A stretch of 56,588 nucleotides of DNA from positions 1-56,588 of the IMG/VR virus record IMGVR_UViG_3300043409_001689, one strand, 5' to 3'. Position 1 is the stretch's first letter. Each line of letters starts with the position of its first letter. This stretch comes from a virus. Lineage: Duplodnaviria; Caudoviricetes. A model generated the notes under the pieces. The model was not told where the DNA came from, made no database searches, and worked only from the letters and a program-made list of their open reading frames with translations. A program made the translations under genes and the position numbers. Shown in pieces: positions 6,819 through 44,173 of this stretch.

Positions 6819-7616
6819 TTATTCTTTCAATAACCGCTTGAAGTTCTCATTGGAAACCACCTTCGTTCCCTTCGCTTCTACCCTTTCTATTAACTCCTTT
6901 GTAAGGCTTCCCCCTTCTATGGCTGCTTCGTGGTTTTCTTGAAAGCCTATGGCGTTTTGTTCAATAGACTTGTTGCGGGTAAGTTCCTCGGAAAGCATGG
7001 AAAAGACCAATTCAAGATTAGTCATGTGGTCACGTAGGTTTTCTTTTTCAATCCCCTTAAAAGCCTTGTGTTCGCTTGGGGTCATGCCAAAAGTGTACTT
7101 GGCTACGGTGGCAGTTAATATGGAATATTCTTTATCCTCCTTAATTCCCCTTCTTTGCCATTCGTCGGTAAGTTCTTTACGGATGCCAATTGCTTTTAGG
7201 CGGCTCTCTATCCACTCTTGGGGATAGCCTTTGACTTCATAGATTCTACGTAAGCGGTCAATAGCTATTTCGGGTTCGCTGGCTTCGTCAAGGCGTTCTT
7301 TTCCTACTTCGGCAAGCCACAGCTTGAAGGGTTCTGCTTTAGGCGAAGGGATAGACATAATGATTCTTAGGATGCCTTCGCTGGGGGCGCAATCCGTGGG
7401 GCGCATTTTACCGTCTTGGGCTAAGAATTTCAACTTTACCCAATTAGGGGAAAGTTCACTATCGCGGCTCTTTAGGTTGTTCCAATACCTTGAAGGATTC
7501 GGGCTATCGGTCAAGACTTCAATAACATCTACTACCGAAAAGAACCATTCTCCTTCATGCCATACCTTGCGAATAGACGCTTCTTGAAAATTAATTATGC
7601 TGTTTGATTTATCCAT
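6819..7616 (-). CDS. BRO-N domain phage antirepressor-like protein
   Basis: IRKVW...EWFFSVVDVI..LTDS, PSPKAEPFKLWLA, LRDHMTNLEL signatures. Confidence 0.88.
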   Translation of the reverse strand: MDKSNSIINFQEASIRKVWHEGEWFFSVVDVIEVLTDSPNPSRYWNNLKSRDSELSPNWVKLKFLAQDGKMRPTDCAPSEGILRIIMSIPSPKAEPFKLWLAEVGKERLDEASEPEIAIDRLRRIYEVKGYPQEWIESRLKAIGIRKELTDEWQRRGIKEDKEYSILTATVAKYTFGMTPSEHKAFKGIEKENLRDHMTNLELVFSMLSEELTRNKSIEQNAIGFQENHEAAIEGGSLTKELIERVEAKGTKVVSNENFKRLLKE

Positions 7617-7659: not shown

Positions 7660-9294
7660 ATGGAAGAAGAAGAATTAGAAGCGGAATTGGTACTTAGGGA
7701 AGCCTTTAGGAGAAAGCAATATCTTGTATATCAAAAGAACCCGCTTGCTTGGGCGCAAGATGTCTTAGGGGAAGACCCTAAATTCTACAAATGGTCTTTA
7801 CATGAAGGTTATGAAAATCATAAATGGGATGGCTCTAAAGACCCTATTTGGGGGGCTTGGAATTGCCTTGCCAAAAAGCAATGGGCTTCCTTACAAGCTG
7901 CTACGGGAACTTCTAAGACTTTCTCGGCTGCTCGGGTAGCCTTTTGGTTCTTAGACTGCTTTGAAGATGCTTTAGTGGTGACAAGCGCACCGAAGGAATC
8001 TCAATTGACTTTGAACCTTTGGGGGGAAATATCAAAGATTAAGGACAAGATGAAAGAAGTCCGTCCTTATATGTACCAAACGAAGCTTTCTATCAAGATG
8101 GAAGGATTGAATGAAGATTCACCCTTTCGGGAGACGCATCAAATGATAGGCTTCGTGGCGGGTGTAGGTGCTGACGAGGAATCCGCTACAAAAGCGCAGG
8201 GTTTTCATAGAAAGAATATGTTATTCATCTGTGAAGAAATGGCGGGTATGAATAGCGCAGTTGTGACGGCTTTCAAGAACACTTGTACGGGCGAAAATAA
8301 TCTCATATTCGCTTTGGGGAATCCCGATAGCGAAACGGACGAACTTCATAAGTTTTCCTTACTTCCAAACGTCCATGATTTCCGTATCTCTGCTTATGAC
8401 TACCCAAACGTGGTATTAGGAAAAGAGTTGTACGCTGGGGCGGTCACTCGGGGTTCTATTGAAAGACGAAGGGTAGAATATGGCGAAGATTCGGCTTTAT
8501 TTCAATCTCGTGTCCGTGGAATGACCCCAAAGGACGACGAAAACTCATTGATAAGGGCTTCTTGGGTGGACTATGCGGACATTCATAGTGATTCATTTGG
8601 GAATGTTCCAAAGGACGGTGAAGGCTATAATGGTTGTGGGGTGGACGTGGCACAAAGTGAAAATAGAGATAAGGCTGCGGTGACGTTCTTTGAATCCAAC
8701 GAACTTGTAAGGCTTGATGAGTTTGAATGTAATAATGCTACGCATTTAGCTTATAATCTCTTTATGGCAGATGCGGACCTAATGGAAAAAGGCTATATCA
8801 AGATGCCTACGGGCAAGATAGACGACTATATGATAATGGACGATTGCATAGGGGTAGATACGGTAGGTATTGGGGTAGCTACTTTAAACGCTTTTGTGGA
8901 TTGGGGGCATAACGTGGTGTCTTTAAGCGGCGGTGCATGGACTGACGAAGGGATTATTCCTTTGGAATATGACGACAAAGGGAAGGAAAAGCCTTTGTAT
9001 AAGTTTGCGAACTTGCGTTCTCAAATGTATTGGGAAGCACGGGAAGACCTACGAGCGGGGAAGCTAAGAATCGCCTTGAAAGATAGGGCATTGTTTGAAA
9101 GGCTTAAAAAGGAACTTTCAGTCATTCGCTTTGCGCTTTCAGATAATGCCGTGGCGGTGGAAAAGAAAGAAGCGATTAAGAAAAGACTTGGGGGAAAGTC
9201 TCCGAACCTTGCGGATGCTTTTGTCTATGGTAATTGGGTAAGAAAAGCATATAGGCTGCAAAGTTTTGGTCTTCCTATGGCTTTTGGTGGATAA
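7660..9294 (+). CDS. terL: Terminase large subunit
   Basis: Walker A-like AATGTSKT, Walker B ICEE, GNP motif, nuclease GVDVA and SPNLADA. Confidence 0.92.
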   Translation: MEEEELEAELVLREAFRRKQYLVYQKNPLAWAQDVLGEDPKFYKWSLHEGYENHKWDGSKDPIWGAWNCLAKKQWASLQAATGTSKTFSAARVAFWFLDCFEDALVVTSAPKESQLTLNLWGEISKIKDKMKEVRPYMYQTKLSIKMEGLNEDSPFRETHQMIGFVAGVGADEESATKAQGFHRKNMLFICEEMAGMNSAVVTAFKNTCTGENNLIFALGNPDSETDELHKFSLLPNVHDFRISAYDYPNVVLGKELYAGAVTRGSIERRRVEYGEDSALFQSRVRGMTPKDDENSLIRASWVDYADIHSDSFGNVPKDGEGYNGCGVDVAQSENRDKAAVTFFESNELVRLDEFECNNATHLAYNLFMADADLMEKGYIKMPTGKIDDYMIMDDCIGVDTVGIGVATLNAFVDWGHNVVSLSGGAWTDEGIIPLEYDDKGKEKPLYKFANLRSQMYWEAREDLRAGKLRIALKDRALFERLKKELSVIRFALSDNAVAVEKKEAIKKRLGGKSPNLADAFVYGNWVRKAYRLQSFGLPMAFGG

Positions 9295-25402: not shown

Positions 25403-25705
25403 ATGGGTAACAAGTATTCTCACATTCAACCAATTGGAAACAAGGTAATTTTCTTACAAGACCCCGCAGTTGAGCGCACAAAAGGGGGCTTAATAATTCC
25501 CGAAGACGCAAAAGAAAAACAAGCCTTCGGAACTATTATCGCAGTAGGTCCTTCGTGCCAACAAGCGGAAGTAGGAAAGCGTATTTGCTTTTCGGAGTAT
25601 TCGGGGCAAAAGGCAAAGGTTGTCCTTACGGATGGAACCATTGAAGAAGCTACTTCTATTTTTGAAGAGCAAGCTTTATACTTGTTTGACCCTATCGAAG
25701 CCTAA
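25403..25705 (+). CDS. groES: Co-chaperonin GroES-like protein
   Basis: IQPIGNKV, mobile loop TKGGLIIP.AKEK, G.IIAVGP, F.EYSG. Confidence 0.9.
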   Translation: MGNKYSHIQPIGNKVIFLQDPAVERTKGGLIIPEDAKEKQAFGTIIAVGPSCQQAEVGKRICFSEYSGQKAKVVLTDGTIEEATSIFEEQALYLFDPIEA

Positions 25706-40149: not shown

Positions 40150-40872
40150 ATGAATCTAAGGCAAATTAAAGAGTTCCAATTTTTCCTAATAGGCTTAGGC
40201 TTATACAAAGGAAAGGCTGACGGCGAGATAGGACCAATGACTAAGGAAGCTATAAAAGCCTTCCAAAAGTCTAATGGGCTTCTTTCGGACGGTATCATCG
40301 GGTCTAAGACTATTGAAAAAGCTGTTGGGCTGGGATTTATGCGCGCGGAGTTTCCTTTGAAGCCTACAAATATTTGGTCATTAGATGCGAAACAAAGGGA
40401 AGCAAAGTTCGGAAAATTCAAATTTGAAGCGGGTCATTCTTTGACCGATAGAGATGCGGTCAATATAAAAGGTGATTGGGAAAACAAAAATATCGTTACC
40501 GTTCAAATTCCACAGCTTGAAGCAATCAAAGGAAGTGCTGCGGTGCGCTGCCATAAACTTGTAGCAAATCAACTTATAGGTTTATTTCAAGCCTTTGAAG
40601 ACAAAGGGCTTATGAAGTATATCTTAACATGGGATGGTATGTTTTACCCGAGGTTCATGCGAGGATATTATGGCAAATTGTCAAATCACTCATGGGGAAC
40701 TGCTTTTGATATTAATGTCGAATGGAACGGAATGGGAACTACCCCCGCTTTAGTAGGCGAAAAAGGAAGTGTAAGGCTTTTGGTAGAGACTGCCTTAGAG
40801 TTCGGCTTTTACTGGGGTGGTTGGTTTGACCGAAAAGACGGGATGCACTTTGAGGTGTATAAGATAATTTAA
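40150..40872 (+). CDS. Endolysin: peptidoglycan-binding domain + M15 peptidase
   Basis: ADGEIGP.T..AIKAFQ..GL..DGI.G; SNHSWG.AFDIN; DGMHFE. Confidence 0.92.
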   Translation: MNLRQIKEFQFFLIGLGLYKGKADGEIGPMTKEAIKAFQKSNGLLSDGIIGSKTIEKAVGLGFMRAEFPLKPTNIWSLDAKQREAKFGKFKFEAGHSLTDRDAVNIKGDWENKNIVTVQIPQLEAIKGSAAVRCHKLVANQLIGLFQAFEDKGLMKYILTWDGMFYPRFMRGYYGKLSNHSWGTAFDINVEWNGMGTTPALVGEKGSVRLLVETALEFGFYWGGWFDRKDGMHFEVYKII

Positions 40873-42029: not shown

Positions 42030-42177
42030 AATATTGATATATGTCAATTATAATAGCTTTCCTAAGATTAAGCTATTTCTAAGATAAAAACTTCTCTTTC
42101 TCTCTCCTTTACTGGATAGGATTTAGAATTTTCGTTAAAATTTTGCTGAAGCCTATCTAACAAGATAGGCTTTTTTT
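42030..42177 (+). ncRNA. Putative small RNA 2, antisense to the genome-wide leader motif
   Basis: Promoter, ORF-free hairpins, CU tract, AGAATTTTCGTTAA, terminator. Confidence 0.55.
42149..42177 (+). terminator. Intrinsic terminator
   Basis: aagcctatct-aaca-agataggc-ttttttt. Confidence 0.8.
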
Positions 42178-42215: not shown

Positions 42216-42827
42216 ATGCAAATTATCATTCATAATCCAAACTCCCTGCCTACGGCTGACTATCGTTCCCTTATTCCCATTCAAGGAAACCTAAAAGACC
42301 TAAAAGAAAAGAATTACAAGAAACTAAAGAAGTCTTTTGAAAGGTACGGCTTCAAGATTCCTTTTTTCGTATGGATTCCTACGGAGTCTGAAAGCGTCAT
42401 GGTGGACGGGGAAGACTTTGAAATAGAAGCGGGTAAGATGTACTTGCTTGACGGGCATCAAAGGCATCGTCTTTTGAATACTGAGGGGTGTACGCCTTAC
42501 GAACTTCCGTATGTGCTTATAGAAGCGGAAAACTTCTTGAAAGCAAAAGAAATGATACTTGTCATAAGTTCTCAATACGGAACTATGACAAGGGAAGGCT
42601 TGGATAGCTTCGGAATTGAGCAAGACTTCTTTGAAGATTTCGTGAACTTTGATGCTATTGTGGATTTTGGGATAGGAGAAGAAGAAGAAGGGGAAGATAA
42701 GGAATCAAGCATGAGTCTTGACACTTTTTATAAAATAGAAGTGTCTTTAGAAAGTGAAAGCGAACAAGAAAAATTATTTAATGAACTTCAAAATCAAGGT
42801 TATCAATGCAAAGTTTTAACATTATAA
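42216..42827 (+). CDS. ParB/Srx-like N-terminal domain protein
   Basis: KL..S...YGF..P, LLDGHQR motif. Confidence 0.8.
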   Translation: MQIIIHNPNSLPTADYRSLIPIQGNLKDLKEKNYKKLKKSFERYGFKIPFFVWIPTESESVMVDGEDFEIEAGKMYLLDGHQRHRLLNTEGCTPYELPYVLIEAENFLKAKEMILVISSQYGTMTREGLDSFGIEQDFFEDFVNFDAIVDFGIGEEEEGEDKESSMSLDTFYKIEVSLESESEQEKLFNELQNQGYQCKVLTL

Positions 42828-43492
42828 GAAAAACTAAGCCAAGCAATTCTTTTAGAGTTGCATCAGTAATGGGAAGTTTTGACCTTCAAGACATCAACAT
42901 AGAAGAAAGATTTGAAGGGGCTTTTGATTTTCCTAATAATTGGCAAATAGGGGCTGTTATTGGCAATAGCGGAACTGGAAAGACTACAATAGCTAAAGAG
43001 TTATTTCAAGATGCTTTTGTCACTAATTTTGAATACACAAAAGACAATATATTGGATGATATGCCTATGAAAGCATCAGTAGCAGAAATAACACAAATGT
43101 TTAATAGCGTAGGGTTTAGTTCTCCACCGTCTTGGCTAAAGCCTTACCAAGTCCTTTCAAATGGTCAAAAGATGCGCGTGGACCTTGCAAATGCTTTACT
43201 ACAAGATAAGGAATTGATTGTATTTGATGAATTTACGAGTGTAGTAGATAGGACTATTGCTCAAGTAGGAAGTTTTGCAGTGCAAAAATCAATAAGAAAA
43301 ACAAATAAAAAATTCATAGCGGTTTCTTGTCATTTTGATATTGTAGATTGGCTCATGCCCGATTGGGTTTTTAATACTAACGATATGACTTTTCAAGTTA
43401 TGTCAAAAAAAAAAGACCAAATTTACGAATCGAGATTTTCAAAACAAAAGATTCAAGAATTTGGAACTTGTTTGCTAAACACCACTATCTAA
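42806..43492 (+). CDS. Soluble ABC-type ATPase (N-part of an ATPase-GNAT protein)
   Basis: GNSGTGKT, LSNGQ, VFDEFTSVVDR, H-loop SCH. Confidence 0.88.
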   Translation: MQSFNIIRKTKPSNSFRVASVMGSFDLQDINIEERFEGAFDFPNNWQIGAVIGNSGTGKTTIAKELFQDAFVTNFEYTKDNILDDMPMKASVAEITQMFNSVGFSSPPSWLKPYQVLSNGQKMRVDLANALLQDKELIVFDEFTSVVDRTIAQVGSFAVQKSIRKTNKKFIAVSCHFDIVDWLMPDWVFNTNDMTFQVMSKKKDQIYESRFSKQKIQEFGTCLLNTTI

Positions 43493-43881
43493 ATCACAAG
43501 CTTAATCCTTCGTCTCAAATTTATGTGATGTTTTGCAATGATTTTCTTTGCGGATTTACAAGTGTTTTGCATTTCCCTCACCCTTCAAGCGATAAAATAA
43601 AAAGAGGGCATAGAACTGTAATTTTACCCGATTTCCAAGGAATAGGACTTGGCGTGTACCTTAGAGACTTTGTAGCTAATTTATACACTTCACAAGGCTT
43701 TCAATTTATAACTACTACATCTAACCCAGCATTAATTCATTCAATGAATAAGTCTAAAAAATGGAAATTAACTGCAAAAGGACGAACTCATTTTAAACCT
43801 AACAAGAATAATATGGAAGGCTTTAAAAAGACCGCTGCGGGAGCAAATAGAATAACAACTTCTTGGAAGTTTATTTGGTAG
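43405..43881 (+). CDS. GNAT acetyltransferase, probably entered by a -1 shift at the A10 run
   Basis: -1 frame KKRPNLRIEIF...W..FAKHHYL; RTVILPDFQGIGLG acetyl-CoA motif. Confidence 0.8.
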   Translation, partial: KKKRPNLRIEIFKTKDSRIWNLFAKHHYLNHKLNPSSQIYVMFCNDFLCGFTSVLHFPHPSSDKIKRGHRTVILPDFQGIGLGVYLRDFVANLYTSQGFQFITTTSNPALIHSMNKSKKWKLTAKGRTHFKPNKNNMEGFKKTAAGANRITTSWKFIW

Positions 43882-43923
43882 TAAAGCGGAACGGACTTGT
43901 GGAGACTGACAAATGGATATAAG

Positions 43924-43954
43924 AAAAGCCCTTGAATCACTTCAAGGGCTTTTT
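43924..43954. terminator. Bidirectional terminator between the genome arms
   Basis: aaaagcccttgaa/ttcaagggcttttt. Confidence 0.85.
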
Positions 43955-43960
43955 GCTTTT

Positions 43961-44173
43961 TTAGAACTCGCTAATAAAGCTTTCTAACTTCTCTTTTTCT
44001 TCACTTTCTTTTTTTATTCTCGCCCACATATTTCTTGTATTCATTTCGTTTGTGTGAAACGATTTATACTGAGCAAATGTAGGATAAGTCATAGGCGAAT
44101 TTAGAACGTCATTGGCATTATCTATTGACGTTTGATAATGTATAACTTTTTTTTCATATTCTTTAATATCCAT
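43961..44173 (-). CDS. Hypothetical protein
   Basis: 70-aa ORF overlapping the upstream stop. Confidence 0.55.
   Translation of the reverse strand: MDIKEYEKKVIHYQTSIDNANDVLNSPMTYPTFAQYKSFHTNEMNTRNMWARIKKESEEKEKLESFISEF

Follow-up and report, generated by a model that had tools for sequence, protein, structure and literature searches.

The 56,588-bp IMG/VR record IMGVR_UViG_3300043409_001689, analysed over its whole length and referred to here as the window, comes from a virus of the Caudoviricetes with an estimated completeness of 66% and holds myovirus-type structural genes (portal, major head, sheath, and baseplate). Its DNA recurs in freshwater metagenome runs. On the plus strand lies a cassette of three overlapping open reading frames (ORFs), encoding a ParB-like protein (ORF1), an ABC-type ATPase (ORF2), and a GNAT domain (ORF3) that is out of frame with the ATPase (Table 1). 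ORF2 and ORF3 overlap by 25 nt, and a run of ten adenines (A10) is placed exactly at the linker between the ABC and GNAT domains. We show below that this run is real DNA, and we argue that programmed slippage at it probably joins the two halves into one protein. The cassette had been noticed in an earlier reading made without database searches (the sequence-only reading); the three overlapping plus-strand ORFs that it listed were all recovered, as was their position directly downstream of a candidate terminator.

Table 1. Positions of the cassette's genes, motifs, and flanking hairpins in the window.
Feature	Position	Strand	Description
ORF1	42216-42827	+	203 aa; predicted ParB/Srx (ParB-CTPase)-fold N-domain, acidic linker, C-terminal module
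DGHQRHR motif	42450-42470	+	ORF1 N-domain
ORF1 conserved C-terminal module	42717-42824	+	about 35 aa; Y.IE..C..E.EQE..YN.L...GY.C..LTL
ORF1/ORF2 overlap	42806-42827	+	22 nt; ORF1 end ..QCKVLTL*, ORF2 start MQSFNII..
ORF2	42806-43492	+	228 aa as unshifted product; ABC-type ATPase and 25-aa out-of-frame tail
Walker A	42962-42988	+	ORF2
Signature LSNGQ	43154-43168	+	ORF2
Walker B	about 43220-43231	+	ORF2
H-loop His	43331-43333	+	ORF2
-1 open stretch	43381-43881	+	from the putative slip site (43414) to 43878, linker and whole GNAT domain, 155 codons
A10, putative slip site	43405-43414	+	two in-phase A_AAA_AAA heptamers, 43405-43411 and 43408-43414
ORF3	43468-43881	+	137 aa from the TTG start; GNAT half
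HHYL motif	43480-43491	+	-1 frame
CoA-loop motif QGIGLG	43636-43653	+	GNAT domain
Terminator-like hairpin upstream of the cassette	42148-42173	+	11-pair stem, then TTTTATG; closes the lysis genes
Terminator-like hairpin closing the cassette	43923-43954	+	14-pair stem and T-run

The A10 run between the ATPase and GNAT frames

In ORF2 the run is read as TCA AAA AAA AAA GAC. It is the sole A10/T10 run on either strand of the 56.6-kb window; dinucleotide shuffles of the window contained 5.8 +/- 3.4 such runs, with at least one in 97 of 100 shuffles. Translated from 43381, the -1 frame gives ..SYVKKKRPNLRIEIFKTKDSRIWNLFAKHHYL.. (likewise ..KKKRPNLRIEIFKTKDSRIWNLFAKHHYL..) and runs on into ORF3, which bears out the earlier proposal that A10 leads into a frame continuous with the GNAT. 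The TTG listed as the ORF3 start, already called weak in the sequence-only reading, is a codon inside the conserved GNAT domain.

The length of the run was judged from contigs of four public runs, two of which may be the source of the record, aligned to positions 42700-44000. The X4 contig, from another sample and study, showed no differences and an intact A10, while the ~5% diverged X6 contig, from yet another study, showed 19 substitutions, no gaps, and A10 across the run. The TTG "start" is CTG in this relative. By our reading of the contig table, 14 of these 19 changes affect the third base of a GNAT-frame codon, a bias that indicates purifying selection on the GNAT half. Contigs of independent studies thus give A10 rather than A11 and no indel, and A10 is real DNA, not an assembly error. 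The reverse explanation, an ordinary fused ATPase-GNAT gene whose actual run is A11 (or A8), can appeal to the error-prone nature of homopolymers and to the run lengths of close database relatives, which vary (P0011, P0013, P0048, P0003). It is opposed by the ungapped A10 of the X4 and X6 contigs, which come from at least two further studies, and by the -1 state of the 77 loci described in the next section, which include isolate and finished genomes and several non-homopolymer heptamers that sequencing does not miscount. We regard the chance of such an error as close to negligible.

The two halves were recognised by one family profile. Of the 357 positions of phrog_11143, ORF2 matched 2-196 (1.3e-60) and ORF3 matched 217-349 (5.6e-26). 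ORF2 also matched Pfam ABC_tran (4.9e-10), and ORF3 alone gave a weak match to Pfam GNAT models (0.0056, below cut-off). The ATPase motif residues G53..K59, LSxG, DE, and H176 are invariant in alignments A1 and A4, and the GNAT frame retains the invariant residues of the family (W, F, HHYL, HR, QGxGxG, W, and R). Among the best 120 database matches to ORF2, which share 61-77% identity with it once the window's own entry is set aside, 35 are proteins of 328-362 aa with Pfam GNAT domains and 85 are proteins of 204-234 aa, most of which terminate, as ORF2 of the window does, in the out-of-frame tail ..KKKDQ....CLLNTTI. Fused relatives in the phrog_11143 family measure 350-362 aa. Relatives therefore occur both split and fused, with single ATPase-GNAT proteins among them, which answers the question of homologue architecture raised by the earlier reading. 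An AlphaFold model of a fused relative 72% identical to the window (pLDDT 79.6) comprised an ABC nucleotide-binding domain (NBD) at residues 1-207, with Z 15.5 to CbiO/EcfA-type NBDs, and a GNAT domain at residues 209-358, with Z 14.7 to 1y9k, Naa50, and RimI. By homology, ORF2 and ORF3 are two halves of one gene and one family.

The JGI label carried by relatives is 'ABC-type ATPase with predicted acetyltransferase domain', and the ABC-ATPase-GNAT family is presumably COG number 2401. Searches of the cassette against other resources were less specific: ORF3 had no match in NCBIfam, where the remaining matches were to generic ABC models far below their cut-offs, a PADLOC scan returned weak ABC-motif matches only, and a PDB sequence search returned generic NBD motifs only. 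No permease gene adjoining ORF2 was found among its gene neighbours in the window, in keeping with the earlier description of an ATPase that has no membrane partner.

Split arrangement and slippery heptamers in diverged viruses

We compared the window with 80 IMG/VR loci, 80 loci from prokaryote genomes, and three cultured phages (Streptococcus pyogenes prophage 315.4, Lactococcus P335, and Oenococcus Vinitor-27). The GNAT half lay in the -1 frame in 77 of 159 scorable relatives. In the IMG/VR set, 65 loci were in frame and 13, plus the window, in -1; among the 80 scorable loci within L082-L164, the corresponding numbers were 15 and 63, with two in another relation. Since these loci are the best matches to a window-like query and not a random sample, and since the Bathyarchaeia loci include many close kin, the counts are not frequencies in nature and overstate the number of independent events, which counts against the case for slippage made below. 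The three cultured phages share the same layout of ParB, ATPase, and -1 GNAT, and the -1 state was also found in isolate or finished genomes (S. pyogenes prophages, Lactococcus P335, Nibrella JCM 17927, Gilliamella, and Alicyclobacillus). Archaeal viruses keep the split state too, and relatives hold it across 60-77% protein identity.

For the 77 loci, we listed the ORF2-phase heptamers of the stretch bounded by the final -1-frame stop and the stop of the ORF2 frame. An in-phase A_AAA_AAA was present in 65 of them, 69-84 nt before HHYL and often right after the -1-frame stop. The other linkers carried T_TTT_TTT (L102, L104, L140), G_GGA_AAG (L091 and the Nibrella isolate L087, whose ORF1 is the nearest to that of the window), A_AAG_GGC (L084), or GAAAAAA and GAAAAAC (L110, L111); GGTTTTT was the only one at the linker of L082, L083, and L127, and the linker of L117, a locus that looks damaged, had no heptamer. 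Such different canonical slippery sequences at one linker point to selection for -1 slippage and are hard to explain otherwise. Diverged viruses of bacteria and archaea share the -1 arrangement together with a slippery heptamer at this one linker.

Several of the genomes behind L106-L164, which are Bathyarchaeia metagenome-assembled genomes, hold two or three cassette copies: OY969706.1 (L120, L123), PLYI01000118.1 (L108 and L141, on one contig), and CAVUGQ01 (L128, L131, L146). Nearly all of the archaeal copies combine CGA AAA AAA G with the -1 arrangement. In L117 the GNAT frame is interrupted by a stop 12 nt ahead of HHYL; L101 and L149, which show another frame relation, also look damaged, L149 being one C short in the GGCCGCCCG stretch of its relatives. 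The homologue of Tenacibaculum phage pT24 (L165:2435-3610, LC168164.1) is in a single frame and has an in-frame stop within the GNAT domain (..FTWNGVPV*INVISPLP..); it is annotated as two 'ABC transporter ATP-binding' coding sequences. This stop may have arisen by nonsense mutation or sequencing error, or it may serve as a readthrough site.

The out-of-frame halves and the damaged look of L117, L101, and L149 could also mean that the window's gene is broken, a frameshift mutation having left only the ATPase to be made while the GNAT half decays. The GNAT frame is nevertheless open over 155 codons with its invariant residues kept, the third-position bias of the X6 substitutions is not that of a decaying sequence, and the split state persists over the identity range given above and in archaeal viruses, with slippery heptamers in phase. 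We consider decay very unlikely.

Constraint on the -1 frame was examined at the protein level with a hidden Markov model (HMM) of 31 in-frame proteins, run on both frames of 75 split loci. The match in the ORF2 frame ended at model positions 196-221, mostly 200-212, and the match in the -1 frame started at 199-207 in 71 of the 75 loci; in 55 it began at residue 1-3 of the open -1 frame. In the stretch of 15 codons that leads up to the conserved Trp, identity to the best-matching in-frame relative was 8.2/15 for the -1 frame, against 3.3 and 2.7 for the other two, and the -1 frame scored best in 68 of the 77 loci. For the window, the same codons gave 9/15 in the -1 frame versus 3 and 4. These data suggest that translation follows the -1 frame from the slip site onward.

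No frameshift would be needed if two separate proteins were made, the GNAT being started at TTG (43468) or at an equivalent ATG/GTG and coupled to ORF2 termination. A codon for M, V, or L stands four codons before HHYL (TTG in the window) and could start a separate GNAT, a point that tells against slippage; it is present, overlapping the ORF2 end, in 37 of the 75 split loci, and 23 of the best 150 representatives found with ORF3 have been called from that M. However, the in-frame proteins contain this M too, as a conserved residue in their interior, and it corresponds to the CTG of X6. Moreover, the first -1-frame ATG, GTG, or TTG lies inside the conserved part in 65 of the 75 loci, usually 20-21 codons in, so that about 20 upstream codons are conserved in the -1 frame with no prior start codon. 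These codons encode the first GNAT strand (fused-model residues 211-216), which a protein started at TTG would lack. A separately started GNAT is, in our assessment, unlikely.

Probable mode of slippage and run length

The junction carries an A9 or A10 run in 24 unique split sequences. In-frame IMG/VR loci show C-A10-T in 65 of 65 cases, followed by AGA (AAA in two). The codons at the site were invariant in 63 unique in-frame ORFs (AAA 126/126, CAA 63/63), whereas at their other positions 20% of Lys codons are AAG and 14% of Gln codons are CAG. The A run appears to be kept by selection. In most in-frame alleles, a TAG codon lies in the -1 frame immediately past the run, so slippage there would yield a tail-less short ATPase. 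If in-frame and out-of-frame alleles both slip, both would make both forms, in differing ratios.

In the 37 sequences of the archaeal A7 group, a 7-bp GC stem begins 8 nt past the heptamer and does not vary. A short heptamer followed by a stem fits ribosomal frameshifting, and a long run without a stem fits RNA-polymerase slippage, perhaps with a ribosomal share. Transcriptional slippage is probably dominant at A10, because the A9/A10 lineages have no conserved downstream RNA structure. In E. coli reporters of another gene, A7, A9, and A11 gave 10, 40, and 63% shifted product, respectively (PMC3711429).

The best reading of the locus is programmed slippage, transcriptional and/or ribosomal, to which we assign a probability of about 0.7. 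ORF1 would be translationally coupled to a single recoded gene, ORF2+ORF3, the whole forming one conserved viral unit. Normal decoding would produce the 228-aa ABC-type ATPase with its short out-of-frame tail. In a fraction of events on A10, the frame would shift by -1, either through an extra A added by RNA polymerase (transcriptional realignment) or through ribosomes slipping back one base on A_AAA_AAA, and the shifted product would be a 358-aa ATPase-GNAT like the in-frame proteins of relatives. With two decoding outcomes, a single gene would provide both the short and the long subunits of an ATP-sandwich ABC dimer. The occurrence of the slip and its ratio are what we infer here.

Several further observations weigh against this reading. 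The A9/A10 group that includes the window has no consensus RNA structure (0 pairs in 15 sequences), and the window's own stem, CCAAAUUU/AAAUUUGG (8 bp, 2 nt past A10), is weak (z = -1.75). Covariation is absent from the 7-bp GC stem shared by the 37 sequences of the archaeal A7 group, and nucleotide diversity in the overlap of this group, by -1 codon position, is 0.29, 0.13, and 0.24, which is mixed and not the pattern of one clean frame. Lastly, none of the public runs listed as containing the stretch is an RNA run, and the run length was judged from contigs, where minority lengths stay hidden.

Fusion could instead be decided by heritable phase variation, with replication slippage rather than decoding slippage toggling the alleles. 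Long A runs are hypermutable, and close relatives differ solely in run length (A9T, A10T, A12T, and A8T-like forms), P0011 and P0013 having A9T where P0048 has A10T, and P0003 having a third-frame tail. These differences leave room for such variation, which is compatible with slippage during decoding. By contrast, the -1 state is also maintained in lineages that have no hypermutable tract, their sites being A7, G_GGA_AAG, T_TTT_TTT, or A_AAG_GGC, and the contigs of the four runs give one length, although minorities would be hidden in them. As the deciding process, phase variation is rather unlikely. Of the two options offered by the sequence-only reading, slippage fusion is therefore favoured by the fused relatives, the conserved -1 heptamer, and the A10 contigs, and phase variation is left as a partial rival.

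Among P0003, P0011, P0013, P0025, and P0062, some tails come from another frame (QKKIDQKLN.., KKKTRFTNRDF..) and one ends in ..QKK. The differences between these five may be real tract-length variation or assembly noise.

The ParB-like partner, predicted function, and related systems

ORF1 of the window had no ParB_N match in Pfam at E <= 1 and gave only sub-threshold cupin/ectoine-synthase noise. Its AlphaFold2 model (pLDDT 78) had Noc (7nfu, 6.8e-5) as top Foldseek match, with Myxococcus xanthus ParB-CTPgS, KorB, and sulfiredoxin (Srx) following to 1e-3. Proteins at the same position in relatives matched ParB_N in 29 of 34 cases, the best at 1.4e-15. In alignment A5, G80 and R83 of the GxxR motif are invariant, and the window and L087 read ..GNLK.. 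where most relatives read ..NPR... The C-terminal ~35 residues are the best conserved part of ORF1 from bacterial phages to Bathyarchaeia. A ParB-CTPase fold is thus predicted for ORF1, and its earlier designation as ParB-like is supported by fold (Noc, ParB, KorB, and Srx) and not by Pfam score.

An ORF1-type gene stands directly upstream in 115 loci, with an overlap of exactly 22 nt in 107 of them, which may reflect translational coupling of ORF1 and ORF2. This overlap encodes two conserved peptides, ..C(R/K)xLTL and M(P/Q)xF(D/N)I, and is kept as a double-coding stretch from bacterial to archaeal viruses.

The coupling of a GNAT with an ABC ATPase has been presented as a predicted, uncharacterised DNA-base acylation system, with Tenacibaculum phage pT24 as a cited example (PMC7824862); pT24 is among the matches of both ORF2 and the fused relative. 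In relatives, a terminase gene lies at most three ORFs downstream in 15 of 17 loci, and genes for a DNA methyltransferase, a glycosyltransferase, or a 2-oxoglutarate (2OG) oxygenase stand beside the cassette in several loci. The complex of the ATPase-GNAT with its ParB-like partner would take an acyl group from acyl-CoA (or aminoacyl-tRNA), attach it to a base in the phage's own DNA, and so protect that DNA from restriction, the intact CoA-loop QGxGxG making acyl-CoA the more likely donor. We hold this function, which the sequence-only reading had also proposed, to be plausible, at a little under even odds. A more elaborate scenario, which we consider doubtful, has a recoding switch shared from Bathyarchaeia to bacterial viruses set the short:long ratio, giving an asymmetric dimer with a single GNAT head; loaded by the ParB-CTPase, it would place an acyl mark on viral DNA around packaging, and the A-run would also act as a heritable on/off dial.

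Three results speak against a DNA base as the target. No terminase was recognised in the window by PHROGs or Pfam, and the cassette follows the endolysin gene. The solved GNATs nearest to the fused model are protein N-terminal acetyltransferases (Naa50, RimI, Ard1) and small-molecule acetyltransferases. When Mom of phage Mu was aligned with the fused-family alignment A4 using hhalign, the result was a probability of 0.9% and E 0.06 over an irrelevant stretch, with sensitivity limited by the use of Mom as a single sequence; nor was the Mom structure present among the structural matches listed for the fused model. The ATPase-GNAT might thus acylate a protein (a packaging, DNA-bound, or host factor) or RNA/tRNA instead. 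Some phage GNATs, such as Rac, modify host proteins (PMC7824862), and TmcA is an ATPase-coupled GNAT acting on tRNA (PMC13219725). The ParB-CTPase fold of the partner, which belongs to a DNA-clamp family, the linkage to terminase and DNA-modifying genes in 15/17 relatives' loci, and the printed prediction, which favours a DNA base (PMC7824862), argue in the other direction. A target other than DNA is a real possibility, if a less probable one than the DNA base.

The family and its predicted role are already in print, and the kind of mechanism is known from dnaX and magnesium chelatase. The system predicted by Iyer, Aravind, and co-workers is of the same family, with the same ABC and GNAT architecture and a viral setting (PMC7824862). 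The sections of that description available to us mention neither a frameshift nor an obligatory ParB-like partner. In the window, by contrast, the two domains occupy different frames, and no recognisable terminase gene adjoins the cassette.

In Thermus dnaX, transcriptional slippage takes place on an A-run. E. coli dnaX makes its tau and gamma forms through a -1 ribosomal frameshift at A_AAA_AAG (PMC8211752). Like dnaX, the cassette would give long and short forms of an ATPase subunit from one gene by a -1 event at an A-rich site on a domain boundary, through ribosomal or transcriptional slippage depending on lineage. The shift leads to the short form in E. coli, whereas here it would lead to the long form in out-of-frame alleles and to the short one in alleles that are in frame (A10T). 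The proteins are unrelated, and the slip of the cassette is predicted from sequence. Magnesium chelatase genes (Antonov et al. 2013, PMC3711429) offer a second likeness, with two annotated ORFs, fused homologues elsewhere, and a -1 shift on poly-A of variable length in bacteria and archaea. That shift has been reporter-tested, at 10-63%, in contrast to that of the cassette, which is viral.

As regards function, Mom of phage Mu is likewise a phage GNAT-fold enzyme made late, and its proven target is the adenine of double-stranded DNA (PMC13219725). It uses Gly-tRNA as donor and works without an ATPase or a ParB partner, and it has no profile similarity to the cassette GNAT (PMC13219725 for the properties of Mom). 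The thymine dioxygenase of O'Toole et al. (PMC13229309) provides a parallel for ORF1, since a small ParB-like protein encoded beside this phage DNA-modifying enzyme is required for it. As described there, that partner has an N-terminal NTP-binding-type domain, a C-terminal domain, and no obvious DNA-binding domain (PMC13229309), and ORF1 is similar. The enzyme in that system is a 2OG dioxygenase, and a need of the ATPase-GNAT for ORF1 is only putative.

TmcA, the tRNA(Met) cytidine acetyltransferase, has an ATPase that is helicase-like and not ABC. It differs from the cassette in its tRNA substrate and in having no recoding. It nevertheless combines an ATPase module with a GNAT and acetylates the exocyclic amine of a nucleobase with acetyl-CoA.

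We found no description of a frameshift in the ABC-ATPase-GNAT family in the literature searched, which did not extend to supplements (e.g. Antonov 2013 S1, S2, and the GeneTack clusters) that may list such a cluster. Term look-ups in PMC3711429, PMC5009743 (first 300,000 characters), PMC8211752, PMC10885494, and PMC12704722 returned nothing on a frameshift of this family.

If the slip is true, the gene would be among the most widespread non-structural recoded genes of tailed viruses, with several slippery heptamers at one linker and many archaeal examples to add to a short list. Gene callers and databases split the gene and label its parts 'ABC transporter' and 'hypothetical protein', so that the enzyme is invisible in annotations. 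The ABC-ATPase-GNAT family is a candidate writer of a DNA modification, and a trans-frame fusion acting with an obligatory ParB-like partner, if this is indeed the active enzyme, would guide what to clone.

The endolysin gene that precedes the cassette occupies positions 40150-40872 and is followed by the hairpin that closes the lysis genes. That hairpin is a consensus match only, three such sites being present in the window versus 2.0 +/- 1.3 in shuffles. Past the hairpin that closes the cassette, genes lie on the opposite strand. Elsewhere in the window, a GroES-like co-chaperonin gene (25403-25702, plus strand; phrog_3188, 3.7e-12) lies within the tail block, between the sheath region and the tape-measure gene. 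A BRO-N domain protein is encoded at 6822-7616 on the minus strand (Pfam, 1.5e-09) and adjoins a plus-strand ORF at 7660-9291 (544 aa, family phrog_5902), which, from its position ahead of the portal gene, might be the large terminase.

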